Source: a phage
Length of the DNA: 64,000 bases
Strand: one strand, 5' to 3'
Sequence record: PZ452594.1
Shown: one piece after another, positions 652-63,368 of the stretch
How positions within the stretch are numbered: position 1 is the stretch's first letter
How the letters are laid out: every line of letters begins with the position of its first letter
Program-made: the position numbers and the translations under genes
Notes under the pieces: model-generated
Database searches by the model: none
Told to the model about the DNA's origin: nothing
The model's input: only the letters and a program-made list of their open reading frames with translations

Positions 652-661
652 TATTTATTCC

Positions 662-1297
662 TCACAGTTCAGATGCTACAGTGATTACAGCTTCAATGTT
701 TTCTGCTGAGCGTTTAATGTCAAGATACACATTACCGTTTTTAGCGATTTTACATGACATTCCGATGTCAGTAAATTTCTGAATATGATGTTCCATCATT
801 TTGTATCCAAAAATTCGCATATTTCCATTATTGTTAATTTCAAAATTGCGAATTCCATGAGTACGTTTTTCTAAAATAGCAAGATAATTACTACGATAAG
901 TTTCAACCTTTTTAAGAACAAATCCATTTTCATCTAAAAGTTTTAACATGAGGTCTTTATCTTCTTCCATATCGGAAGTAATCTCGCGAGCTTTACGAGT
1001 TGCTCGTTTTTTCAGTAGTTCCGGAGCATTTTCCTGTGCGTATAAAGTTGCTGCGTTTGAAATAATATCCTGAGCTTCACCTGTAATGATTAATCCATCA
1101 CCAGATTTCTCCACCAGGCCTTTTTTAATCAATACCCCAATATTACTATTAACTACTGCGTTACCTAAATCTGGATGCACCTCACGAACTTCTGCAGCTG
1201 TAATGAAATCTTTCTTAGCAATAGTAATTAAAATCGCAGCAGTTTTTTCATTCAGAACATCGTTAGAAGTTTTGATGATGTAAGTTACTTTAGACAT
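662..1297 (-). CDS. motA: MotA, activator of middle transcription (211 aa)
   Basis: Protein MSKVTYIIKTSNDVLNEK... recognised as T4 MotA; length 211 aa matches. Confidence 0.9.
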   Translation of the reverse strand: MSKVTYIIKTSNDVLNEKTAAILITIAKKDFITAAEVREVHPDLGNAVVNSNIGVLIKKGLVEKSGDGLIITGEAQDIISNAATLYAQENAPELLKKRATRKAREITSDMEEDKDLMLKLLDENGFVLKKVETYRSNYLAILEKRTHGIRNFEINNNGNMRIFGYKMMEHHIQKFTDIGMSCKIAKNGNVYLDIKRSAENIEAVITVASEL

Positions 1298-1338
1298 TTT
1301 CTAATCTCCGTAATTCTGTATCAGTAGTTGATAGTTGT

Positions 1339-1368
1339 ATAGTACCACAGTATGCTTTGGTTGTAAAC
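1339..1368 (-). promoter_or_regulatory. T4-type early promoter upstream of motA
   Basis: Minus sense GTTTAC (rc of 1363-1368), 18-nt spacer, -10 TACTAT (rc of 1339-1344); ~45 nt upstream of motA ATG. Confidence 0.45.
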
Positions 1369-1390
1369 CGTTTTGTGAAAAAAATTTAAA

Positions 1391-1418
1391 ATAAAAAAGG
1401 GAGAGCCTCGGCTCTCCC
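1391..1418 (-). terminator. intrinsic terminator after the gene 52 operon
   Basis: Hairpin gggagagcc/ggctctccc (1399-1418) followed in transcript sense by a U-run (plus A-run 1393-1398). Confidence 0.55.
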
Positions 1419-17457: not shown

Positions 17458-18204
17458 TTATCCTCGGATAAGTTTAAAAATTGAACAATTTAGCGGATAT
17501 CCTCTTTTCAGTTTAAGTTTATCAATAAAAGACAAATTTTGATACCGCTCTACACCTTGAATAATTTTATCACACATATCATATTGCATTTCTGCTTCTG
17601 ACAACTTTTTCACAATTTTCCAATCCGAGCCTTTAAGAAGAACGTTCAGTTTAACAACTTCAGCGCCTTCTGCTATGCGAGAACCATCAATACGAGCTTT
17701 GAGTGCTATAATCCTTAGCTTAATGTCAGATGTCTGTTTTGATTTAGAAAGCTGAGAAATGTGTTCAATTCGATTTTCACGTTTTTTCTGTATAGCTTTA
17801 ATTTGATTATAAGTCTTTTTGATTTTAGCCCATTTCTTTTCATCTAAATTTAGTTTATGAACTTTTTTCGCAGATGAACGACCAATTCGCAAAGCAAATA
17901 AATCACGCTTTTCAATCAACTCTTCTAAAGTATAATCAGAACGAAATGTATTATACTTTTTCTTTACTGCAATAACATTCCCTTTAATGTATCCAACGTT
18001 ATTATCAAAACGTTCTAATGATAATTTCTCTCCTTCAATACGATTATCAAAAGGTTCTCCCGAGTAAGCGCAAACTTTTTGATCTAAAATGTTCTTAATG
18101 TAATTGAAGTCTAAGTTAAAATCTTTAGAACGTCTTTTTGCAGATGCCTGAGTATGCTCTAGACGACGTTTAATTTTACGAATTTGATTATTAGACAGCT
18201 TCAT
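17458..18204 (-). CDS. basic 248-aa protein at the position of T4 srd
   Basis: ORF track; Lys/Arg-rich; position between dda.1 and modA and length fit T4 Srd, sequence not verified. Confidence 0.45.
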   Translation of the reverse strand: MKLSNNQIRKIKRRLEHTQASAKRRSKDFNLDFNYIKNILDQKVCAYSGEPFDNRIEGEKLSLERFDNNVGYIKGNVIAVKKKYNTFRSDYTLEELIEKRDLFALRIGRSSAKKVHKLNLDEKKWAKIKKTYNQIKAIQKKRENRIEHISQLSKSKQTSDIKLRIIALKARIDGSRIAEGAEVVKLNVLLKGSDWKIVKKLSEAEMQYDMCDKIIQGVERYQNLSFIDKLKLKRGYPLNCSIFKLIRG

Positions 18205-21652: not shown

Positions 21653-21710
21653 AGCGCTCTCCTCTATAAGATAATTTTATTATACCATACTCATTTTGGA
21701 AAGTAAACCA

Positions 21711-21744
21711 TTTAAATGAAAAAAGGACTCCCGAAGGAGTCCTT
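21711..21744 (-). terminator. intrinsic terminator after soc
   Basis: Hairpin aaggactcc-cgaa-ggagtcctt (21723-21744; UUCG loop in RNA) followed by U-run (plus A-run 21717-21722). Confidence 0.6.
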
Positions 21745-21748
21745 GAAT

Positions 21749-21994
21749 TTATTCACCAGTTACTTTCCACAAATCTTCATTTGCAGCAATCCATTCAGTA
21801 CGTTGATTTTCTTCATATACTGTAGAATATGCTGCTTTTTCTGAAGGGAATGTCTGGTAATGTGCACCAGAAATTTTGTGAACGTCAGAATAAAGAGGGA
21901 AAGCTACGGAAATTTCCTTTCCTTCAATTTTCTTATTTCCATCTAATTTCTGCTCAAATGTTTTGATATTAACATAACCGCGAGTACTAGCCAT
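21749..21994 (-). CDS. soc: small outer capsid protein Soc (81 aa)
   Basis: MASTRGYVNIKTFEQKLDGNKKIEGKEISVAFPLYSDVHK... recognised as T4 Soc. Confidence 0.92.
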   Translation of the reverse strand: MASTRGYVNIKTFEQKLDGNKKIEGKEISVAFPLYSDVHKISGAHYQTFPSEKAAYSTVYEENQRTEWIAANEDLWKVTGE

Positions 21995-22024
21995 GTAATT
22001 CTCCTTTTATTTAAATTACATGAT

Positions 22025-22032
22025 TATTTATA
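22025..22032 (-). promoter_or_regulatory. late promoter (TATAAATA) for soc
   Basis: Minus sense TATAAATA (rc of tatttata 22025-22032) ~30 nt upstream of soc ATG; soc is a late gene in T4. Confidence 0.5.
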
Positions 22033-22077
22033 ATAAATTCTCGCGGCTTTTAAGTCGTCGTTTATTTAAACGAGCTA

Positions 22078-22596
22078 TTAATAGCCTCGGTCTTGACGAG
22101 CGAAATTTTCAGCATTTTTCAGATAATAAAGTTTAAATATTTCTTCAGCTGACATTCCAAGAGCAATAAATTTATTCATGAAAAAGTGAAATTGGTCAAT
22201 CAGTTCAAATTTAATTTCAAGCTGATCTTCAGGAGATAAGTCTTGAATTTTCTTGGATTGCATTTCAGAATAACGTTTCTTCCAAGGTTTCCATACGGCA
22301 GAAGCTTCTTTTTCACCATTACTCATACCACCAAGAGAAGTATATAGCTCGCGAGTTTCATCTGCGATATAATCGTCTTGGTTTCGCAACCAAGCAAGAA
22401 CTTCTCCTGCAGTTTCAAGTGAATCAGGATGACGATTTGTTTCTGGTTTATCATTAGCCAAACGAATCTGTAAATGCCGCTGCATATCAAGCATAACCTG
22501 CAGTGGGTCAATATTGTGCATAATATTCTCAGCATATGCACGATTTGCTTTATCAACACCTTCGATCAAATGAGCGCATTCATTAAAGTAAGCCAT
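22078..22596 (-). CDS. 56: dCTPase/dUTPase gp56 (~172 aa)
   Basis: MAYFNECAHLIEGVDKA... recognised as T4 gp56; track ORF 22078-22689 is an upstream non-ATG extension. Confidence 0.88.
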   Translation of the reverse strand: MAYFNECAHLIEGVDKANRAYAENIMHNIDPLQVMLDMQRHLQIRLANDKPETNRHPDSLETAGEVLAWLRNQDDYIADETRELYTSLGGMSNGEKEASAVWKPWKKRYSEMQSKKIQDLSPEDQLEIKFELIDQFHFFMNKFIALGMSAEEIFKLYYLKNAENFARQDRGY

Positions 22597-22667
22597 TATT
22601 TTTCCTTTCAATTCATGGGTTAGTAGATTAATTATACAATAAATATATAAAGCAATAAGGAGGACAT

Positions 22668-22868
22668 ATGGTACAAAAATTAATGGCACTTGTTAATGCC
22701 ATAAAAGGTAATAAAAAACGTATAGCTTTTACTATTTCTGCTATGGTAGGAATTTTACTCTGGAACTTTATTCTATCACCTGTTGCAATTGCACATGGTA
22801 TTAATATTCCAGTAGTTACTCTTGATACATTTGTAGATTTAGCATTTGCTTTAGTTGGGTTGATTTAA
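22668..22868 (+). CDS. small hydrophobic protein (66 aa) on the opposite strand
   Basis: ATG 22668 preceded by AAGGAGG (22657-22663); two hydrophobic segments; convergent with gene 61 and ends 3 nt into it. Confidence 0.5.
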   Translation: MVQKLMALVNAIKGNKKRIAFTISAMVGILLWNFILSPVAIAHGINIPVVTLDTFVDLAFALVGLI

Positions 22869-23893
22869 ATCTTAGCATATTTAGATAGCCGCATTTTAGC
22901 CATCAACCCCTGGGCAATATTATTTTTCATATATTCCATAATTTGTTCAGGGGTTGCACCTTCCTTTCTAATCATATCATTAACATCTTTTGATTTCCAG
23001 GGAGATTTATCCCAAAACATAACCCTTTCTCCTGCATCAACTAATTTAGTCATTCGCTTAATAGTGTCAGGATGACGAGGTTCATTATCTAAAACCCACA
23101 CTCGTCTATCTTTAAATGGAACAACTTCTAGGTCTAATTGACCACCCGTAATAGCTATACCATTTTCAATAAAAAGTGAATCTATAGGTCCTTCTAGAAC
23201 ATATACATCACCATCTTTAACTCGTTCGACTCCATAGATTTTTGTTGCTTCAGGATAAGCTTTGATGGTGATATATTTTTGGGGAGCATCTTTCTTTAAT
23301 GCACGTCCTTGAAAAGACTCAGCTTTTCCATTAGCATTATAAATTGGAATAACAAGACGAGGCTCAGGTATTTCCTTTTTATATGTTCCCGGTGCTATGC
23401 TATTAACTAATTTAGGCCATTCAGTTGTAAACCAAAGATATTTCCATTTATCCTTTGGAATACAACGAGCTTTTATATATTTTATAATTGCATGGTCTTC
23501 CGCCAGTTTATCTAATCTAACACATGACGGAAGAGATTTAATTATTTTCTTCTCAGGTTGTTTAGGAAGTTCTTTAGGTTTTTCTACTGGACGACTTTTA
23601 CCTTTTTCTTTTCTTATTTCAAAGATATACTCACGATATAAATCGGGTTCAAACTCCTTTAAATATATTCCGATTGGCGCATGATAGTTGCAGTTATAAC
23701 AATGAATATTTCCTTCATTATTATCACCATAATACCATCCACGGGCTTTATTTTGATCGGTTTTTGAATCTCCACAAACAGGACATCTAAACCGTAATTT
23801 AAAAGTTGAACTATTATTTACTTGCGCGAATTTAGGTAAATGAGCCAATGCACGGTATGCAAACTCATTATCAATCCAAGGTATTGATGACAT
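22865..23893 (-). CDS. 61: DNA primase gp61 (342 aa)
   Basis: Zinc-binding CPVCGDSK...CYNC; MSSIPWIDNEFAYRALAHLPKF... recognised as T4 gp61; 342 aa. Confidence 0.92.
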   Translation of the reverse strand: MSSIPWIDNEFAYRALAHLPKFAQVNNSSTFKLRFRCPVCGDSKTDQNKARGWYYGDNNEGNIHCYNCNYHAPIGIYLKEFEPDLYREYIFEIRKEKGKSRPVEKPKELPKQPEKKIIKSLPSCVRLDKLAEDHAIIKYIKARCIPKDKWKYLWFTTEWPKLVNSIAPGTYKKEIPEPRLVIPIYNANGKAESFQGRALKKDAPQKYITIKAYPEATKIYGVERVKDGDVYVLEGPIDSLFIENGIAITGGQLDLEVVPFKDRRVWVLDNEPRHPDTIKRMTKLVDAGERVMFWDKSPWKSKDVNDMIRKEGATPEQIMEYMKNNIAQGLMAKMRLSKYAKI

Positions 23894-23894
23894 T

Positions 23895-24060
23895 TTTACT
23901 CTTCTTTTTCTTTAGATTCCTCTTTTTTCTTTTTAGGAATCTGTTCAGGGCCTTTATTTACTACAGCACCTGATGTTGTTCCAGTAGAGATATTTTCAGG
24001 ATTACCACCTGAATCTCCAGCAACCATATCTTCTTTGATAAATTCTTTATATGTTTTCAT
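23895..24060 (-). CDS. small hydrophilic protein (~54 aa)
   Basis: Hand-translated MKTYKEFIKEDMVAGDSGGNPENISTGTTSGAVVNKGPEQIPKKKKEESKEKEE; below track cutoff. Confidence 0.35.
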
Positions 24061-24061
24061 A

Positions 24062-24418
24062 TTAACCTCTATTCATAAAAGCATTAAAAATTTGGTCATC
24101 AATCGATGGAATAGCAACCTTTTCGGCATCATTTAGCAAATCATTAATTTCATCAGATAGCATAACGCATGTACCTTTATTTCCTGTAATTGTTACTGCG
24201 CAATTACGAACGTTTTCTTTATCAAATTTTAGGTTAATATTTTCGTAGTGAAAATCCTTTAATGCCGAATATATTTTTAAAATGAAATTGTCTTTTACTA
24301 CAATAAACCCAACCTCACTATTAAAACGTGGTTCATGGAAACTGTAATAAACCTTTTCATCTATAAAATCGTATGAAATTTTTTCCATTTTTAAATATGA
24401 AAATTCAGAACTATACAT
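24062..24418 (-). CDS. hypothetical protein (118 aa)
   Basis: ORF track; within the 61-41 interval (T4 61.1-61.4 region). Confidence 0.5.
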   Translation of the reverse strand: MYSSEFSYLKMEKISYDFIDEKVYYSFHEPRFNSEVGFIVVKDNFILKIYSALKDFHYENINLKFDKENVRNCAVTITGNKGTCVMLSDEINDLLNDAEKVAIPSIDDQIFNAFMNRG

Positions 24419-25255: not shown

Positions 25256-25285
25256 ACTATACCATAGTCTCGTCAGCTTGTAAAC
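25256..25285 (-). promoter_or_regulatory. T4-type early promoter upstream of dmd
   Basis: GTTTAC (rc 25280-25285), 18-nt spacer, TATAGT (rc 25256-25261); overlaps gene 41 stop. Confidence 0.45.
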
Positions 25286-26712
25286 TAAAATTTTAATTCA
25301 TTTGCCAAAGCATCTAACTGAGCTCGAGTAGATTCATTTCTTTGATAGCGATTCTGTTCAGCCTGAATCTGTTGTGAACCTGCTACTTCACTCACTTCAG
25401 TTGGAGTAGAATCTTGTTCAATTTCTACCCATTTCTGATTTCCCTTTTGAACACCCATCAAAAACTTATTCCATTTATTCTTATCACCATATCGTGATTT
25501 GATTTGCTTAATTAGTTGTTGTTCAGCAGCTGCTAACTCCTCGGTTTCAATGACCGCAAGCATAAAATCGGCTGTTGCTGGAAGACCGGCAGATTCTGCA
25601 ATATCGCTCATGTTAACATCAGAAGAATCCCAAGCTTGCTTACCAACTTGTGCTGCGGTCCAAAGAACAGTTTCGGTTTCAACAGCCAGAGCACGCAATT
25701 CCTCTGCGATAGCTTTAACAGTTGTGTAACTATTTTCTGAATAAACTCTGATGCGACAAGATTTACAAATACCCAGATAGTCAACAATAATGATTGTTGG
25801 AACAAAATTCTTCTTGAGCTTTAATTCATTTAAAAGCGACCGAAATGTATTAGCGTCTGCTCCACCAGTAGGATACTGTTTAACGATTAAACGTCCAAGA
25901 GTAGATTTCTCACGCCATTTTTCCATTTTTCCTTTATATTCAGCGTAAGAAATATGCCCATCATCAATGTCATCAAGAGAAACATCAAGCATGTTAGCGT
26001 CAATACGTTTAGCACAGACTTCTTCTGCCATTTCCATTGAAATGTAAAGAACATTATGACCGAGCTGTAAATAATCTGCTGCCAATGAACACAGACCTAA
26101 TGACTTACCAACGTTAACACCAGCCATTAAAACGTTCAGTGTTCCAGTCTCAGCTCCGCCTTTAGTAATTTTATTTAGAATTTTGAGTTTAAATGGAACC
26201 TTACGAGCTTTATTCATATAAGATAGCCAACGTGCTTCGTAGTCATCCATCCAATCATGACCAACGTAGCTATCAAATGAAATTGATAATGCTTGGCGCA
26301 TGATGTCAGGAATAGCACCTACATCTGGCATTTTCTTATTTCGTTTTTCCGGAGGAAGCTCAGCATTAGTTTGAATTTCAATTATTTTAGATGTGGCGTT
26401 AAACATCGCCCTTTGCTGAACATATTTTTCTGTTTCTTTTACTAACCAGCTATGGTCTTCTGGAGAATCAGCTAGTTTTGAAATAAGTGTTTTTACACCA
26501 GAATATTCTGTTTCAGTAAATGAACTATTTTCTAATGCAACATTTAACGCATTAATAGATGGAACGCTATGGTACTCATTAACATGAGATTTAATTAATT
26601 TGAATGTATTTTTAGCTGGACCACTTTCAAAATATTCTGAATCCATATATGGCCAAACTTTTGAAAAATAAGCTTGATCAAATATAAGATGAGAAAGAAT
26701 AATTTCTACCAC
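25285..26712 (-). CDS. 41: replicative DNA helicase gp41 (475 aa)
   Basis: Walker A GVNVGKS; recognised as T4 gp41; 475 aa; GTG start in this window. Confidence 0.93.
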   Translation of the reverse strand: MVEIILSHLIFDQAYFSKVWPYMDSEYFESGPAKNTFKLIKSHVNEYHSVPSINALNVALENSSFTETEYSGVKTLISKLADSPEDHSWLVKETEKYVQQRAMFNATSKIIEIQTNAELPPEKRNKKMPDVGAIPDIMRQALSISFDSYVGHDWMDDYEARWLSYMNKARKVPFKLKILNKITKGGAETGTLNVLMAGVNVGKSLGLCSLAADYLQLGHNVLYISMEMAEEVCAKRIDANMLDVSLDDIDDGHISYAEYKGKMEKWREKSTLGRLIVKQYPTGGADANTFRSLLNELKLKKNFVPTIIIVDYLGICKSCRIRVYSENSYTTVKAIAEELRALAVETETVLWTAAQVGKQAWDSSDVNMSDIAESAGLPATADFMLAVIETEELAAAEQQLIKQIKSRYGDKNKWNKFLMGVQKGNQKWVEIEQDSTPTEVSEVAGSQQIQAEQNRYQRNESTRAQLDALANELKF

Positions 26713-37483: not shown

Positions 37484-39166
37484 TTAAACCATTACAGTAA
37501 ATCGACCAACTTTCTTCATTTGAAGATGCTGACCATATTCTTGCGGGTCATGGTCTTTATGTGAAATTATAAAAACATTAGTGTTTTTCATTGAATTTAT
37601 AATATTAGCTACACCTTTAATACCTTCGGCATCAAATGACCCATCAAACACTTCATCGAGTATTAATGTACTAATACTAACACCAGATACAATAGAAGCA
37701 ATATCACGCCAAGTAAATAAAAGAGCAATATCAATTCGTGCCTTTTCACCTTCACTAAATGAAGCATAACTAAAATCTTCACGACCACGGGATTTAATTG
37801 TCTCATTAAATTCTTCATCTAATGTAAACACATAATCCGCTTCCATTATTTTAAGATAATGGTTAATCTGCTTATTAAATAATGGAATGTACTTTTTAAT
37901 AATAGCACCTTTAATACCAGAATCTTTGAGCATATCAGTCAAAATTCCTCGGTGGTATTTTTCCATTACTAAATTAGTTTTTGTCTTAACAATTTTATCA
38001 AGTTCTTCTTGAAGCAGTGCTATTTCATCGGCATGGTCAATAAACTCAGATGATGCTTTTTCTATAGCCGCTTTAACCTTTTTAGCTTTATCTACCGTCG
38101 TGATTAGAGATTGCTTTTTATTGCGAATATCATTTGCCAACGACTGTTGGGTTTTAATATTATCTCGGTATTCATCAACAAGAACTTTTAAATTATCACG
38201 ATGTGTTGAAAGCTGTTCAAATGAATGTGTGCATTCAGAAACTTTATCTTTAATTTTAGAAACAACTTTATCACCGGAACTTAATTGTGACAAACAGGTT
38301 GGGCATAATCCACCTTCGTGATACATATTAATGACTTTATTATACGAGTCAATTTTTGATTTAATTAAAACTGCTTCTTGACCGATTTTATTAAATGCAT
38401 CAGTCGGATCTTCGTCTAAAACAATATTAACTAATCTTTCATTAGCTTCTTCTATTTCCGATTTTAGCGTTCTAGCTTCTTTTGCCAAATCATCATACAT
38501 ATTCTGCAAACGAGTAAGATTGTCACCCGTTAATTTTTTCTGGCGTTCAACGTTATCATTATATATTTTAATTTGTTGGATAATACTATCTTTTTTAACA
38601 TCAAGCACTTGGTTTTGTGAATTTAATTCACGTATTAGTGCTTTATTAAGCTTATCCATTTCAGCTAATGTTCCTACCTCGAGCAGGTCTTCCACAAGCT
38701 TTCTTCGCGCAGGGGTCGACAAACCCATGAAAGGGGTATACCCTGCTGTACCAAGGACAACAATCTGCTTGAAACTGGCATATGACATTCCGATAAGCTG
38801 TTCAAATTCTGCTTGGAAATCTTTACTGCTGGCAGATTCATTAAGACGTGTACCGTTAACGGTGATTTCGAAAACGTTTGGTTTTTGTCCTCTTTTGATA
38901 TAGTACTTTTTCTCATCATATTCCATCCACAGTTCAACTAAAAGTTCTTTCTTATTTGTGCTGTTTATTAATTGACCTTTCTTTACATCACGAAATGGCT
39001 TACCAAAAAGCCCAAATGTGATGGCTTCTAACATAGTAGACTTACCACCGCCATTTCGTCCAGTAATAAGAGTTTTTTGAACCTTATCTAATTGAATGTC
39101 AACTCCATTTTGACCAACTGACATTATATTTTTATATTTTACTCTATTAAGTTTAAATGATTTCAT
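37484..39166 (-). CDS. 46: recombination endonuclease subunit gp46 (Rad50/SbcC-like, 560 aa)
   Basis: Walker A GRNGGGKST, central coiled coil with CPTC zinc hook, C-terminal signature/Walker B; recognised as T4 gp46. Confidence 0.93.
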   Translation of the reverse strand: MKSFKLNRVKYKNIMSVGQNGVDIQLDKVQKTLITGRNGGGKSTMLEAITFGLFGKPFRDVKKGQLINSTNKKELLVELWMEYDEKKYYIKRGQKPNVFEITVNGTRLNESASSKDFQAEFEQLIGMSYASFKQIVVLGTAGYTPFMGLSTPARRKLVEDLLEVGTLAEMDKLNKALIRELNSQNQVLDVKKDSIIQQIKIYNDNVERQKKLTGDNLTRLQNMYDDLAKEARTLKSEIEEANERLVNIVLDEDPTDAFNKIGQEAVLIKSKIDSYNKVINMYHEGGLCPTCLSQLSSGDKVVSKIKDKVSECTHSFEQLSTHRDNLKVLVDEYRDNIKTQQSLANDIRNKKQSLITTVDKAKKVKAAIEKASSEFIDHADEIALLQEELDKIVKTKTNLVMEKYHRGILTDMLKDSGIKGAIIKKYIPLFNKQINHYLKIMEADYVFTLDEEFNETIKSRGREDFSYASFSEGEKARIDIALLFTWRDIASIVSGVSISTLILDEVFDGSFDAEGIKGVANIINSMKNTNVFIISHKDHDPQEYGQHLQMKKVGRFTVMV

Positions 39167-39181
39167 TTTGTATCCAATTGT

Positions 39182-40036
39182 TCACAATGAAGAAAATTCT
39201 TTAACTAAAGCCTGTAATGAAGCCTCTATTGGATATCCATTCTTAACTAACATTTTCCTAAACATTACATGTTTAGGACGATTATATGATATCCACAATT
39301 CATACAATTTATCTTTATTATCCCAATGATAGCCTTTTCGTCGAGATGCTATATGAGCTTTTCTAATCTCCGGATTTTTCCAACTAGCAGCTACTGAATT
39401 TGATATAGCTATTTTATATTCAGGTTTTGATAAAGCAGCACGAACAGCCTTTTGGTGTTTAATTTTATTTTCTTCGTTATTAAACCATTCCCTTGAAGCC
39501 ATTGAAATTTTTTGTTTTGTTTTAAAATTATTTAATCTTTCTTTATTATCTTTCCTATTTTTTGCTACTGAAAAATATTTTAATGCCCTTTCTCTAGCAG
39601 CATTTCTATTTTGCGGATTTGAATAATACTGTTGAAGCCTTTTTGATATTGTGTCACTTACATCTTGTTTTATAAAACTATATTCAGCAGCTATTAAATC
39701 AACTTCGGCTAAAGATAAATTTTTATATGTTTTTCCTGACATCATTCTATTTAAAGCATTTAACATTTTTCCATTTTTACCTTTTGCTAATAAGAAGTGT
39801 GCTTTAAAATGATTAAAATGACTTAAATTAACTAAATTCCATGTAGATTTTAAATATTCAGGAAATATTGATTTAGGAAGCACGTGGTGTGCTTCCGTTT
39901 TACCTGGAGTTTTAACAGTTGAATTCACAGAAATAAAATTAATGTAAGACTTGGCGTCTTCTTCACTCAACGCTAATTTTTCAACTAATTCCTTTATTAA
40001 AAATTCATCATTAATGTCAAGTTTAAAATTCTTCAC
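39182..40036 (-). CDS. HNH-family homing endonuclease-like protein (284 aa)
   Basis: HNH motif EAHHVLPKS...NLVNLSHFNHFKAH; basic C-terminal region; GTG start; lies between 46 and 47. Confidence 0.6.
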   Translation of the reverse strand: MKNFKLDINDEFLIKELVEKLALSEEDAKSYINFISVNSTVKTPGKTEAHHVLPKSIFPEYLKSTWNLVNLSHFNHFKAHFLLAKGKNGKMLNALNRMMSGKTYKNLSLAEVDLIAAEYSFIKQDVSDTISKRLQQYYSNPQNRNAARERALKYFSVAKNRKDNKERLNNFKTKQKISMASREWFNNEENKIKHQKAVRAALSKPEYKIAISNSVAASWKNPEIRKAHIASRRKGYHWDNKDKLYELWISYNRPKHVMFRKMLVKNGYPIEASLQALVKEFSSL

Positions 40037-40248: not shown

Positions 40249-40483
40249 CCTTAATACAAGATACAGCCATATCTCGTAATGATTTAGGTGTGTCATTATC
40301 TAAAATGTTGAAGTTAAAAGATACAGCCCAGTCAGTGCAGACCGTGACCTTTTTAATACAATTATCTTCAACCTCTAACGGTTCAAACCAATATTCAATA
40401 ATTTCTTTATGCCCAATATCATCTTTTACTTCGCATTCAAAATGCTGACTCATCATAACATTTTTAAATTCATCAAAAGTCAT
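40220..40483 (-). CDS. hypothetical protein (87 aa)
   Basis: ORF track; ATGA overlap with gene 47 stop. Confidence 0.45.
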   Translation of the reverse strand: MTFDEFKNVMMSQHFECEVKDDIGHKEIIEYWFEPLEVEDNCIKKVTVCTDWAVSFNFNILDNDTPKSLRDMAVSCIKDAYCEVFDI

Positions 40484-41499
40484 TGTGTTGCCTCTACATA
40501 TAACTGATTTGCATATTGAATAAGTGCTTCACGGTCAGAATCAGTGATGTCTGGAATTGCATTAATGTATTCTTCCATCAACGTCTGAAGCGATTGAACT
40601 TCAACTTCTTCACTGTCATCTGACTCGACAGAGTTATCAATCTTTGACACAACTCGTAACGAATGCACAACTTTTTCTAGTTCAGATTCGAACTTCGTCA
40701 GATTTTTGTCTACTTCAGTTACTATAACACGTACTGATAGATTTGTAAAATCTTTATAGTCAATTTTTCCTTTAAATGGATAATGAATTCTACGGTGCCA
40801 GGTAGTGTTGTTTGGAATAAATTCCATTCGTTCTGTTTCTGTATCAAACATCCAGAACCCGCGAGGGTCATTCTCGTCACCTGCTGTTAGTGTCCATGGT
40901 GTCCCAATATATCTGACGTTTGCAGCCTCAGAAATAGTATGGAAGTGACCAGACCACACTTCTTTATAAGTCTTAAGGAAATCAGGTTCAAGACCGTGAG
41001 ATTTCATTCCTTTATAAAAATAAAATCCATTCAGTTCCCAGTGACCAACACAAAAAGAAGCAGATGAAGTTTTGATGTGTTCAAGAATTTCACCAGTATT
41101 TTCTTCGCACATCCAAGGAATTAAATCAATCAAACATCCGTCAAAATCTACTGTAGTAGGCTTATCATATACTTTAACATTGGGATATTTAGCCAAAAGC
41201 TCAGTAGAGGCATTTGGAGTTAAAGTATTTTTAAAGTGCATATCATGGTTTCCTACAACAGTATGTAGGGTAATACCAGCATCATCAAGCATTTGAACTA
41301 TTTCACGAGCAAACTCCATAGTTTTATGCGTGATTGCTTTTCGCACATCAAAAATATCGCCGTATTGAATCCAGGTAGTAATTCCATTTTTCTTAGAATA
41401 TTCTATTGCTTGTTTAATTCCATCCAACTGAATAGATTGAACCCACTCATCATCGGCTTTAACGCCTAAATGCCAATCACCTAAATTTAAAATTTTCAT
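40480..41499 (-). CDS. 47: recombination endonuclease subunit gp47 (Mre11/SbcD-like, 339 aa)
   Basis: Phosphoesterase motifs LNLGDWHLG, GNHD, GHFH; recognised as T4 gp47. Confidence 0.93.
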   Translation of the reverse strand: MKILNLGDWHLGVKADDEWVQSIQLDGIKQAIEYSKKNGITTWIQYGDIFDVRKAITHKTMEFAREIVQMLDDAGITLHTVVGNHDMHFKNTLTPNASTELLAKYPNVKVYDKPTTVDFDGCLIDLIPWMCEENTGEILEHIKTSSASFCVGHWELNGFYFYKGMKSHGLEPDFLKTYKEVWSGHFHTISEAANVRYIGTPWTLTAGDENDPRGFWMFDTETERMEFIPNNTTWHRRIHYPFKGKIDYKDFTNLSVRVIVTEVDKNLTKFESELEKVVHSLRVVSKIDNSVESDDSEEVEVQSLQTLMEEYINAIPDITDSDREALIQYANQLYVEATQ

Positions 41500-49673: not shown

Positions 49674-49714
49674 AATAAACCCTTACCTTAAATAGATAAG
49701 GGTATTTATTATTT

Positions 49715-63326: not shown

Positions 63327-63368
63327 ATATACCCCTTTAGTTAGATAAACCTATTTATAACTTTTGCA

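Follow-up and report, generated by a model that had tools for sequence, protein, structure and literature searches.

What does a T4-like phage carry between its soc gene and its primase gene 61 when neither dam nor segF lies there, and is the short reading frame on the opposite strand of this region a gene? The question comes from a stretch of phage DNA of 64,000 nucleotides (sequence record PZ452594.1), hereafter the window, in which an earlier note made from the letters alone had singled out positions 21,995 to 22,868. A megablast search with the window retrieved 516 phage records, nearly all from Tequatrovirus, and the top match, CrRp10 (98.9%), is collinear with it in one piece. We consider it very probable, as a single joint reading, that the window derives from a Tequatrovirus whose soc-56-61 region has its common, minimal form and that the plus-strand ORF is a real, probably late gene for a membrane protein; this estimate concerns the locus and the identity of the gene and leaves the specific role of its product aside. 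The features of the locus were assigned as follows.

21749-21994, minus: soc (small outer capsid protein), an ORF of 81 aa with a match to Pfam Soc PF16855 (E 2.3e-55)
21995-22077: the soc-56 interval of 83 bp, without segF or soc.1/soc.2, containing the soc ribosome-binding site and the soc late promoter
22025-22032, minus: predicted soc late promoter TATAAATA, assigned by motif; its T4 homolog P(L)15.32 is annotated in X01416
22078-22596, minus: gene 56 (dCTPase/dUTPase), 172 aa, ATG at 22596 (MAYFNE), collinear with T4 gp56, with a weak dUTPase_2 match
22631-22656, minus: predicted MotA-type middle promoter of gene 56, with MotA box ATTGCTTTA (22656 to 22648), 11-nt spacer, and -10 element TATAAT (22636 to 22631)
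22638-22645, plus: predicted late-promoter (gp55-type) -10 motif AATAAATA, 23 nt before the ATG of the 66-codon ORF, with a predicted start at about 22651 (A)
22657-22663, plus: Shine-Dalgarno sequence AAGGAGG, 4 nt before the ORF ATG
22668-22868, plus: ORF of 66 aa, phrog_2024 (RB32ORF030w / RB69ORF029w), assigned by open frame, profile match, and conservation
22683-22702: palindrome ATGGCACTTGTTAATGCCAT within codons 6-12 of the ORF, which on the minus strand forms a terminator-like hairpin with a T-run 160 nt downstream of 61; identical in T4
22865-23893, minus: gene 61 (DNA primase), 342 aa, whose stop codon overlaps the ORF stop (TTTAAA)

The spacing given in the earlier note, 83 bp between soc and 56 and 268 bp between 56 and 61, is recovered from the gene coordinates, and its description of a 66-codon plus-strand ORF that follows an AAGGAGG and converges on gene 61 holds down to the overlap of the two stop codons. 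No minus-strand ORF of at least 30 aa is present within 22690-22865. Genes on the opposite strand had been called rare in this arm, and among the 48 ORFs of at least 150 aa in the window all but one lie on the minus strand, the exception itself overlapping minus-strand ORFs and being probably spurious. As judged by its predicted elements, the 268-bp interval is fully occupied by the minus-strand middle promoter of gene 56 and a plus-strand late unit.

The reported lack of segF is borne out. The 83-bp gap between soc and 56 contains no homolog of SegF (about 224 aa, a GIY-YIG free-standing homing endonuclease), and the only tblastn match to SegF in the window is weak (E 0.36) and falls at 39275-39916, in a different homing endonuclease (phrog_655). 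The same is true of the statements that the 56-61 interval has no ORF of methyltransferase size and that the window has no ORF containing DPPY: tblastn with T4 Dam reaches a best E of 0.8 in the window, the DPPY sequence (catalytic motif IV) occurs in none of its six frames, and the sole [DNS]PP[YFW] motif in these frames is an SPPF inside a 103-codon ORF. The position of T4 dam, which the earlier note had given as lying in this neighborhood, is placed between 56 and 61 by the T4 annotation. A dam gene elsewhere in the genome had been named, in combination with no expression of the ORF, as an outcome that would overturn the proposal; the complete genome of ES12, a dam-less relative collinear with the window, gives zero Dam matches at E<=1, which supports a genuine absence of a phage Dam. 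By extension from this relative to the whole genome, a Dam gene is most likely missing from the phage altogether.

Two points in the reading of the earlier note needed correction. The ORF had been described as standing there instead of dam; in T4, this same 66-aa frame lies between dam and 61, and we rejected the ORF as a dam replacement since the two coexist in T4 (NC_000866) and in the T4-type dam-plus contigs L012 and L013. Nor are the absences unusual: T4 represents a minority state, with 182 records for T4-type Dam (at least 90% identity) and 46 for SegF (at least 95%) versus 503 for the ORF (at least 90% identity), all of these counts including RefSeq/GenBank duplicates. Among relatives represented in the sequence records, the dam-less and segF-less arrangement is the majority state, and dam, segF, and soc.1/soc.2 appear as optional elements that happen to be present in T4. 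For instance, T6 has only some 340 bp more than the window where the two match, less than dam would need; segF is described as a free-standing homing endonuclease inserted at soc/56 (PMC2988022), and T2 is without it (PMC5931544). The genes dam, 56, and 61 are unmentioned in the PeSL paper. In phage RZ, a 249-aa gene beside the ORF was considered as a relocated methyltransferase and rejected as HNH-like. The absence of dam and segF thus offers little to pursue, being the usual state in the genus, with textbook T4 as the exception.

The plus-strand ORF belongs to a known family. Its product matches phrog_2024 with E 1.4e-31, residues 2-66 covering positions 1-65 of the 65-position profile, and RB14 ACP30675.1 and proteins encoded on 259 contigs share its sequence at 100% identity. 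By these matches, the ORF is a member of a conserved, uncharacterized family that has been annotated since 2006 as RB69ORF029w / RB32ORF030w. In T4, the same ORF with two amino acid differences is found at NC_000866 17738-17938, within the 310 bp that separate dam from 61 and carry no annotation. Three sequence types of phrog_2024, namely the A type, the B type, and the Karam type, were distinguished, and all divergent forms match the profile with E values of 1e-22 to 1e-31 (1e-22 to 1e-28 for the Dhaka-, Jiaoda-, and Karamvirus forms). Sequence searches of Pfam, NCBIfam, and PDB with members of the family gave no meaningful match; phmmer against 1.84 billion representatives returned only the family itself and two repeat-protein artefacts (P0032 and P0036), Foldseek against viral structures only family members, and a word-indexed protein search only relatives above 90% identity. 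A search for related loci with the single ORF protein retrieved only five. The names of the ORF led to no paper in a literature search, and a search of the literature on T4 Ribo-seq or unannotated T4 ORFs found nothing relevant.

Conservation of the ORF at the protein level extends over 699 phage records. We examined the position opposite 61 in the window, T4, RB14, F31, VR26, EAWsc9, CkP1, RZ, RPN187, MN04, and Lion_ER11, and at least six Tevenvirinae genera (Tequatro-, Mosig-, Gapriver-, Karam-, Dhaka-, and Jiaodavirus-like) were found to have the gene adjacent to the 3' end of 61, on the side of gene 56 and oriented opposite to 61. The end of the ORF overlaps the 61 stop in most loci outside Tequatrovirus and is 18-120 nt away from it in Lion_ER11 and EAWsc9; an HNH-like gene separates the ORF from 61 in RZ, and a tandem paralog with its own ribosome-binding site does so in VR26. 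The frame stays open at 63-69 codons across seven divergent lineages that share 22-55% amino acid identity. In an alignment of nine sequences from six genera, W32, N33, P38, G44, P48, and G64 are invariant, and the conserved core of phrog_2024 reads W-N-x4-P-x5-G-x3-P followed by a C-terminal G. The dN/dS ratio is 0.10-0.29 within Tequatrovirus and 0.25-0.43 between genera, and the variable sites at codon positions 1/2/3 number 9/3/14, 7/3/11, and 1/0/7 in three genera (17/6/32 when summed). A GGAGG sequence, or GGAG in Mosigvirus, is kept upstream of those orthologs that have their own promoter motif. As read from these comparisons, the plus-strand ORF is a real conserved gene under purifying selection, predicted to encode a small hydrophobic protein.

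The upstream region of the ORF carries promoter motifs on both strands. On the plus strand, AATAAATA fits a late element of the TATAAATA type (-13 to -6, without a -35 element) located shortly before a gene. It is the sole plus-strand WATAAATA in the 64 kb, where 25.4 +/- 4.3 copies of the motif would be expected and 5 are present, a five-fold depletion. In five of the six genera (Tequatro-, Mosig-, Gapriver-, Dhaka-, and Jiaodavirus-like loci), the ORF is preceded at 20-30 nt by an nATAAATA sequence, and the motif is kept even where the flanking sequences are unrelated, as between dam-plus and dam-minus haplotypes. Of the 50 T4 late promoters listed in PMC2988020, 9 have A at -13. Two observations count against a late promoter: Karamvirus CkP1 has ATTAAATA rather than nATAAATA, and a hidden Markov model scan of RB69 published in 2006 called no late promoter at this site. 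On balance, the plus-strand unit, consisting of the predicted late promoter, the strong ribosome-binding site, and the 66-codon gene, is probably expressed late. On the minus strand, the pattern TGCTTYA-N10-13-TANNNT matches at 22631-22654, one of 17 sites in the window versus 3.2 expected. In T4, the MotA-dependent promoter of 56 serves as the oriA primer promoter. The middle promoter predicted for 56 in the window is in the same position as the mot-box and -10 element of T4 P(M)16.53 (X01416).

The earlier note had described the product as a two-helix hydrophobic peptide. Its hydrophobicity stands, with a maximum Kyte-Doolittle hydropathy of 2.01 over a 19-residue window in the 66-aa product; the two helices hold only in part. 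The AlphaFold2 model (pLDDT 76) contains helices at residues 2-12, 16-42, and 52-62, only the second of which is of membrane length, the C-terminal one having 11 residues, and the published prediction for the RB69 ortholog RB69ORF029w has one transmembrane segment, at residues 21-41. The mean hydropathy of the C-terminal segment is 2.05 in Tequatrovirus and 0.74-0.85 in the Dhaka- and Karamvirus forms. The C-terminus (...DLAFALVGLI) has no basic residues, the basic cluster K13-R18 being N-terminal. For trypsin, residues 19-66 make up a single hydrophobic peptide of 48 residues. The predicted layout of the product thus comprises a helix at 2-12, the basic cluster at 13-18, a transmembrane helix at approximately 19-42 with W32, N33, and P38, the loop HGINIP, and a helix at 52-62. 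Because the hydropathy profile, the AlphaFold2 helices, and the published transmembrane segment of RB69ORF029w point the same way, the product is probably a small inner-membrane protein with one transmembrane helix and a short C-terminal helix.

Several other explanations of the locus were weighed against a conserved late membrane-protein gene. According to one, the ORF is non-coding, and the conservation stems from minus-strand signals (the 3' end or terminator hairpin of 61, the 56/dam promoters) or from a late antisense RNA that lowers primase or early mRNA. The region indeed overlaps the early polycistronic transcript of the other strand and contains the terminator-like palindrome at 22683-22702; there is no intrinsic terminator after the ORF, so that a plus-strand transcript would run antisense into 61; the T4 reference annotation omits the ORF; and T4 is known to use the two strands of some sites as templates at different times (PMC2988020). 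However, these signals would have to coexist with a frame open in seven lineages and six invariant residues, a dN/dS well below 1 with substitutions mostly at the third codon position, and a strong conserved Shine-Dalgarno sequence, with a ribosome-binding site also before the VR26 paralog; moreover, Rfam gives zero matches, and the fold of the 5' region is not significant (z -0.49). We find a non-coding ORF barely credible, and an antisense effect could accompany coding. It is also very doubtful that dam was lost specifically in this lineage and that the loss has a functional meaning, with the membrane ORF or another gene compensating for it. That dam is missing from the window and from its relative ES12 and is present at exactly this site in T4, T2, and 182 records agrees with such a loss, and the short imperfect repeats TAATTAAA / TAATTTAA that flank the T4 cassette, as read by eye, fit recombinational gain or loss; however, the ORF occurs with or without dam and is thus not a replacement, and Dam homologs of other genera are located at quite different record coordinates. 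Furthermore, the order 56-ORF-61 without dam is found in the sister genera Mosig-, Gapriver-, and Dhakavirus as well, which suggests that the dam-less form is the simpler ancestral state here and dam an inserted cassette. The T4 dam gene is non-essential.

Once the ORF is taken as a late membrane-protein gene, its product could be a holin or pinholin, i.e., a small protein of the membrane, made late, whose lethal lesions set the time of lysis. In length (65-69 aa) it resembles class II holins and pinholins, its hydrophobic helix is accompanied by another hydrophobic segment, a late-promoter motif lies upstream, and UniProt names the OE5505 ortholog "Holin", as the EAWsc9 record has "holin family protein". 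These labels seem, however, to have been assigned without support by automatic pipelines or submitters, nearly all named cluster members being listed as "hypothetical"; searches with seven members of the family gave no match to a Pfam or NCBIfam holin, even at cut-offs of E<=1 to 10, the protein ends in a hydrophobic C-terminus (...ALVGLI) and not in the charged cytoplasmic tail typical of holins, the second helix has only 11 residues in the model and shows little hydrophobicity in the forms from Dhaka- and Karamvirus, and the neighbors in all genera examined are 56 (dCTPase) and 61 (primase) instead of endolysin or spanins. The holin of T4 is gpT, the loss of which abolishes lysis. With no family match, no charged tail, and no linkage to lysis genes, we rejected the holin label and regard this function as highly improbable. 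Possible, if on the unlikely side, is a late envelope factor unrelated to lysis: an anchor or chaperone of membrane-bound head or baseplate assembly, an exclusion protein, or a counter-defence factor against a membrane-located host system. The late-promoter motif combined with the membrane topology would suit such a factor, the restriction of the family to Tevenvirinae genera infecting Enterobacteriaceae suggests a host-envelope-specific role, and duplication of paralogs and replacement of types, both seen here, are frequent in host-interaction genes. On the other hand, no assembly or defence gene is connected with it by homology or context, Imm and Sp, which act in T4 exclusion, are early proteins, and the sequence data fit an accessory role in lysis equally well.

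For the late membrane-protein gene, we propose the following scheme. The gene would be transcribed late by RNA polymerase modified with gp55/gp33/gp45, from the strand opposite the early genes, and its product would insert into the inner membrane through one transmembrane helix, with the N-terminus and its basic cluster K13-R18 inside. The buried W-N pair and P38 in this helix probably mediate helix-helix association, and the short acidic, hydrophobic C-terminal helix would be at or beyond the periplasmic face. The product is probably an accessory of a late envelope-associated process. Given its size, membrane location, and presumed timing, modulation of lysis timing or lysis inhibition is a tentative first guess that we hold to be unlikely as it stands; membrane-associated assembly or exclusion would be the alternatives. 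A family or fold match that would explain the role was found neither in Pfam, NCBIfam, or PDB nor in the fold search. Lysis in T4 is already covered by t, e, rI, rIII, and the spanins, and thus no missing function demands the phrog_2024 gene. A further and decidedly unlikely proposal is that phrog_2024 represents an overlooked late membrane component of T-even biology, maybe a modulator of holin T/antiholin RI acting on lysis timing or lysis inhibition, or of another envelope-linked late step, and that late polymerase in the spacer of the 56 promoter, where the late promoter is located in dam-less phages, could help to switch the MotA promoter off.

To what was known of phrog_2024 we add that T4 encodes an unannotated copy, that a late-promoter motif travels along with the gene, and that the family spans at least six genera and three sequence types. 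The T4 copy (17738-17938) is missing from the reference annotation and from T4 protein databases, and consequently annotation-based screens and omics of T4 miss the gene, which lies on the reverse strand within the cluster of early replication genes. It offers a cheap and well-defined knockout target in the best-studied lytic phage.

Comparison with known systems places the locus as follows. Class II holins and pinholins such as S68 of the lambdoid phage 21 resemble the window product in size, late promoter motif (late expression being deduced from it), and helical hydrophobic architecture; however, they have a charged C-terminal tail, whereas the window product has none, its second helix is either too short or weakly hydrophobic, and it is not linked to lysis genes. 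The small hydrophobic peptide of type I toxin-antitoxin systems finds a counterpart in the 66-aa product (hydropathy 2.01); for an antitoxin-like antisense sRNA, no Rfam family, significant fold, or sRNA promoter was found, and the opposite strand is occupied by the early 61-to-56 read-through mRNA. The T4 locus (NC_000866 16270-18963; X01416), annotated in the order soc-segF-56-dam-61, shares with the window soc, 56, and 61, the MotA middle promoter before 56, and the 66-aa plus-strand ORF abutting 61. It differs in that segF separates soc from 56, whereas the window is without segF, and in a cassette of about 890 bp, consisting of dam and its promoters, between the 56 promoter and the ribosome-binding site of the ORF. 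The late motif before the ORF is accordingly dam-proximal in T4 (GATAAATA), whereas AATAAATA of the window falls within the spacer of the middle promoter of 56. Phages of the T2/T6/RB14 type (soc-soc.1-soc.2-56) are likewise without segF, and T6 and RB14 are also without dam and have the same plus-strand ORF, RB14 in the order soc-ncORF-56-RB32ORF030w-61; however, this type has, between soc and 56, some 340 bp that contain one or two small ORFs, in contrast to 83 bp in the window. The short 83-bp interval is common to the window, CrRp10, RB3, CM8, and SH7. The closest counterpart of the ORF is the RB32ORF030w / RB69ORF029w family, from which it shows no structural difference and whose members occupy the same place opposite gene 61.

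The window represents an arm of early or middle genes from a T4-like phage (Tequatrovirus). With a single exception, which overlaps minus-strand ORFs and is probably spurious, its ORFs of at least 150 aa are all encoded by the minus strand. The genes around the 56-61 interval are the following:

21749-21994, minus strand, soc (Pfam Soc, E 2e-55)
22078-22596, minus strand, gene 56 (start ATG, MAYFNE…)
22668-22868, plus strand, 66-codon ORF (AAGGAGG at 22657-22663)
22865-23893, minus strand, gene 61, primase
25285-26712, minus strand, gene 41

The TAA of the plus-strand ORF overlaps the stop of gene 61. The sequence bears out exactly the 83-bp soc-56 and 268-bp 56-61 gaps described in the earlier note, as well as this ORF and its upstream AAGGAGG. 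At the 61.2 position, the window has a 118-aa ORF (24062-24418, minus strand), RB14 has a 118-aa "RB32ORF033c, similar to gp61.2", and T4 has the 208-aa gp61.2, a further length polymorphism within the same arm.

The gene order in the T4 reference annotation is soc - segF - 56 - dam - (310 bp unannotated) - 61; dam thus does lie between 56 and 61 there, in the neighbourhood where the earlier note had placed it. The proposed absence of segF and dam from the 64-kb window also holds, since the T4 SegF and T4 Dam queries found no homologue there (best E 0.36 and 0.8, respectively); the only DPPY-type motif in all frames is one SPPF in a 103-codon ORF. A megablast search with window positions 21700-23950 retrieved 516 phage records, nearly all of them Tequatrovirus, with Citrobacter phage CrRp10 as the best match (98.9%, one collinear piece); T6, RB14, RB18, phiD1, and many others differ solely by a ~340-bp insert between soc and 56. 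The 66-aa ORF occurs in 503 phage records (identity at least 90%), T4-type Dam in 182 (at least 90%), and SegF in 46 (at least 95%), counts that include RefSeq/GenBank duplicates but leave the proportions clear: dam is present in roughly one Tequatrovirus record in three, and segF in fewer than one in ten. The segF polymorphism is already known: this free-standing GIY-YIG homing endonuclease is inserted at soc/56 and targets gene 56 (PMC2988022), and a passage in PMC5931544, citing Belle et al. (2002), describes T2 as missing segF, with soc.1 and soc.2 filling the site. The studied phage is missing segF, yet it has a different free-standing homing endonuclease, a 284-aa ORF (39182-40036, minus strand; phrog_655, E 8e-45; no Pfam match) between gp46 (37484-39166) and gp47 (40480-41499).

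The 56 - ORF - 61 arrangement without dam is also found in the sister genera Mosigvirus, Gaprivervirus, and Dhakavirus, and the Dam homologues of other genera are located at quite different record coordinates; thus, dam is most simply regarded as a mobile accessory cassette, and the layout seen in the window as minimal and probably ancestral. The earlier note had also suggested a search for dam outside the window, and we addressed this with the complete genome of ES12, which is a Tequatrovirus without dam that aligns collinearly with the window (90-98% identity). T4 Dam matched nothing in it at E<=1, and E. coli Dam gave only a spurious 41-residue match (E 0.51); dam is therefore absent genome-wide from this relative, which by analogy supports its real absence from the studied phage. 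In one dam-plus Tequatrovirus contig (L013, IMGVR_UViG_2974787500_000001), a 186-aa gene (841-1401, minus strand) is located between dam and the 66-aa ORF, immediately upstream of dam and overlapping its start. Its family is phrog_8706 (unknown function), its match to the Pfam DpnII restriction endonuclease is weak and below threshold (E 0.0045), and its equivalent is named "putative restriction endonuclease" in the Shinka record; a cassette of dam plus a GATC-nuclease-like gene may thus exist in some T-even phages.

The unannotated 310 bp of T4 contain the same plus-strand ORF (T4 reference region L001 4739-4939; NC_000866 17738-17938), encoding 66 aa with two substitutions, and the ORF is also present in the dam-plus contigs L012 and L013. 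Since T4 has the ORF and dam together, the former is not found "instead of" the latter, as had been suggested, and we rejected it as a dam replacement given their coexistence in all three sequences. The gene is unannotated in both T4 reference genome records (NC_000866 and AF158101) and is described in RB14 as "RB32ORF030w, similar to RB69ORF029w." Neither NCBI nor UniProt has an accession for the exact T4 protein variant, which was found only in raw-read (Logan) assemblies; the variant of the window occurs on 259 contigs, always named "hypothetical."

The 66-aa ORF is a real gene, as is evident from its position, selection, family, a paralogue, and narrow distribution. Phages of six genera have an ORF of 63-69 codons next to the 3' end of gene 61 and on the strand opposite to it: Tequatrovirus, Mosigvirus (F31, RPN187), Gaprivervirus (VR26, EAWsc9, RZ), Karamvirus (CkP1), Dhakavirus (MN04), and a Jiaodavirus-like Klebsiella phage (Lion_ER11).

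Motif upstream of the ORF, by lineage
Tequatrovirus, dam-less: AATAAATA
Tequatrovirus, dam-plus sequence context (T4, L012, L013): GATAAATA
Mosigvirus: AATAAATA
Dhakavirus: AATAAATA
Gaprivervirus: CATAAATA
Lion_ER11: CATAAATA
CkP1: ATTAAATA, does not fit nATAAATA

No such ORF was found beside gene 61 in Winklervirus, Serratia phage 92A1, and Krischvirus. Its dN/dS is 0.10-0.29 within Tequatrovirus, 0.10 in Mosigvirus, 0.18-0.50 in Gaprivervirus, and 0.25-0.43 between genera, with variable sites at codon positions 1/2/3 numbering 9/3/14, 7/3/11, and 1/0/7 in three genera. All forms match phrog_2024 ("unknown function"; E 1e-22 to 1e-31), and W32, N33, P38, G44, P48, and G64 are invariant among nine aligned sequences. 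A full phmmer scan of 1.84 billion cluster representatives recovered, apart from two repeat-protein artefacts, this family only, in about three clusters at 50% identity. VR26 has a second, tandem copy, whose sequence type is the one found alone in Dhakavirus; the family would thus have undergone duplication and replacement of one type by another. The two VR26 paralogues (L005 2495-2901) are both on the plus strand, 8 nt apart, the second without its own promoter motif, and the sole MN04 copy is at L023 2226-2426. Other genera likewise have insertions in the 56-61 interval, which makes it a hotspot: in RZ, a 249-aa HNH-like gene separates the ORF from 61 (L016 1872-2621; Pfam HNH E 8e-4, below threshold), and in CkP1 an additional gene of 101 aa, on the minus strand, separates 56 from the ORF (L007 2139-2444).

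WATAAATA, which is the core of T4 late promoters with the A/T often found at -13, occurs only five times in the 64-kb window against 25.4 +/- 4.3 in shuffles, a roughly five-fold depletion, and thus the genome avoids this motif. Its sites are:

652-659, minus strand
22025-22032, minus strand, known soc late promoter (cf. X01416 P(L)15.32)
22638-22645, plus strand, AATAAATA, 23 nt before the ORF ATG
49703-49710, minus strand
63352-63359, minus strand

From the sole plus-strand site, transcription is predicted to start at A22651, giving a 17-nt leader that includes the Shine-Dalgarno sequence. The variant with A at -13 is supported by two papers: Geiduschek and Kassavetis list 50 T4 late promoters, 32 perfect and nine with A at -13, and describe late transcripts of either polarity (PMC2988020), and Nolan et al. 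found -13 poorly conserved, A or T (PMC1524935). A 2006 HMM scan of RB69 called no late promoter at this locus. In all lineages compared except CkP1, an nATAAATA motif precedes the ORF by 20-30 nt. Between dam-plus and dam-minus haplotypes the sequence upstream of the ORF is unrelated, yet both keep the motif, the strongest indirect evidence that this putative promoter belongs to the ORF.

A MotA-type middle promoter pattern for gene 56, TGCTTTA-N11-TATAAT, is located at 22631-22654 (minus strand) and is the positional equivalent of T4 P(M)16.53; the general pattern TGCTTYA-N10-13-TANNNT is about five-fold enriched in the window (17 sites, 3.2 expected). The late motif falls wholly inside the 11-nt spacer of the gene 56 promoter, so that two divergent, temporally distinct predicted promoters share ~26 bp. 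We found no plus-strand intrinsic terminator after the ORF, and a late transcript would therefore run antisense into gene 61. A T4 dRNA-seq study reports 150 start sites in the phage, of which 22 are antisense. A perfect-stem palindrome, ATGGCACTTGTTAATGCCAT (22683-22702), is contained in codons 6-12 of the ORF. Read on the minus strand, it resembles a terminator, with a hairpin and a T-run, and lies 160 nt downstream of gene 61; T4 has the identical sequence, whereas in Mosigvirus it is not obvious.

By hydropathy, the protein begins with a short amphipathic segment (residues 1-12), followed by basic residues clustered at K13-R18, ~24 hydrophobic residues (19-42), a HGINIP loop, and a hydrophobic 18-residue C-terminal tail containing D53 and D57. 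For RB69ORF029w, the prediction of Nolan et al. was a single TM segment (21-41) without a signal peptide. AlphaFold2 places helices at 2-12, 16-42, and 52-62 (mean pLDDT 76, from a shallow alignment of 16 sequences), and the C-terminal segment is weakly hydrophobic in the Dhaka- and Karamvirus forms. These helices, the RB69ORF029w prediction, and the weak C-terminal hydrophobicity favour a topology with the N-terminus in, a single span, and a periplasmic or interfacial C-terminal helix over a possible helical hairpin. From what is generally known of membrane proteins, the invariant Asn and Trp at mid-span suggest helix-helix association. No Pfam, NCBIfam, PDB-sequence, or informative fold match was obtained for the protein.

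In sum, the ORF is a gene that is conserved, evolves under purifying selection, encodes a small hydrophobic protein, and is accompanied by a late-promoter motif and a strong ribosome-binding site; that it is non-coding is very improbable. Late transcription would be carried out by gp55-programmed polymerase, on the opposite strand to that of the early genes, the product would insert into the inner membrane, and we would guess at an accessory part in a late, envelope-linked process. Our first choice, itself rather doubtful, is a role in lysis timing or lysis inhibition; other envelope roles, taken together, are slightly likelier but still doubtful. Two records carry "holin" labels, but neither a holin family match, nor a charged C-terminal tail, nor linkage to lysis genes, the testable defining features, was found, and a holin is highly unlikely.

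The finding is essentially ordinary overall, and one inexpensive, well-defined experimental target remains. Databases and literature already contain this locus layout, with its segF polymorphism, and the ORF family, as RB69ORF029w (2006) and phrog_2024. To these our analysis adds, modestly, that the ORF coexists unannotated with dam in T4, that its family spans at least six genera and three sequence types, and that it has a conserved late-promoter motif, which in dam-less phages is nested in the gene 56 middle promoter.
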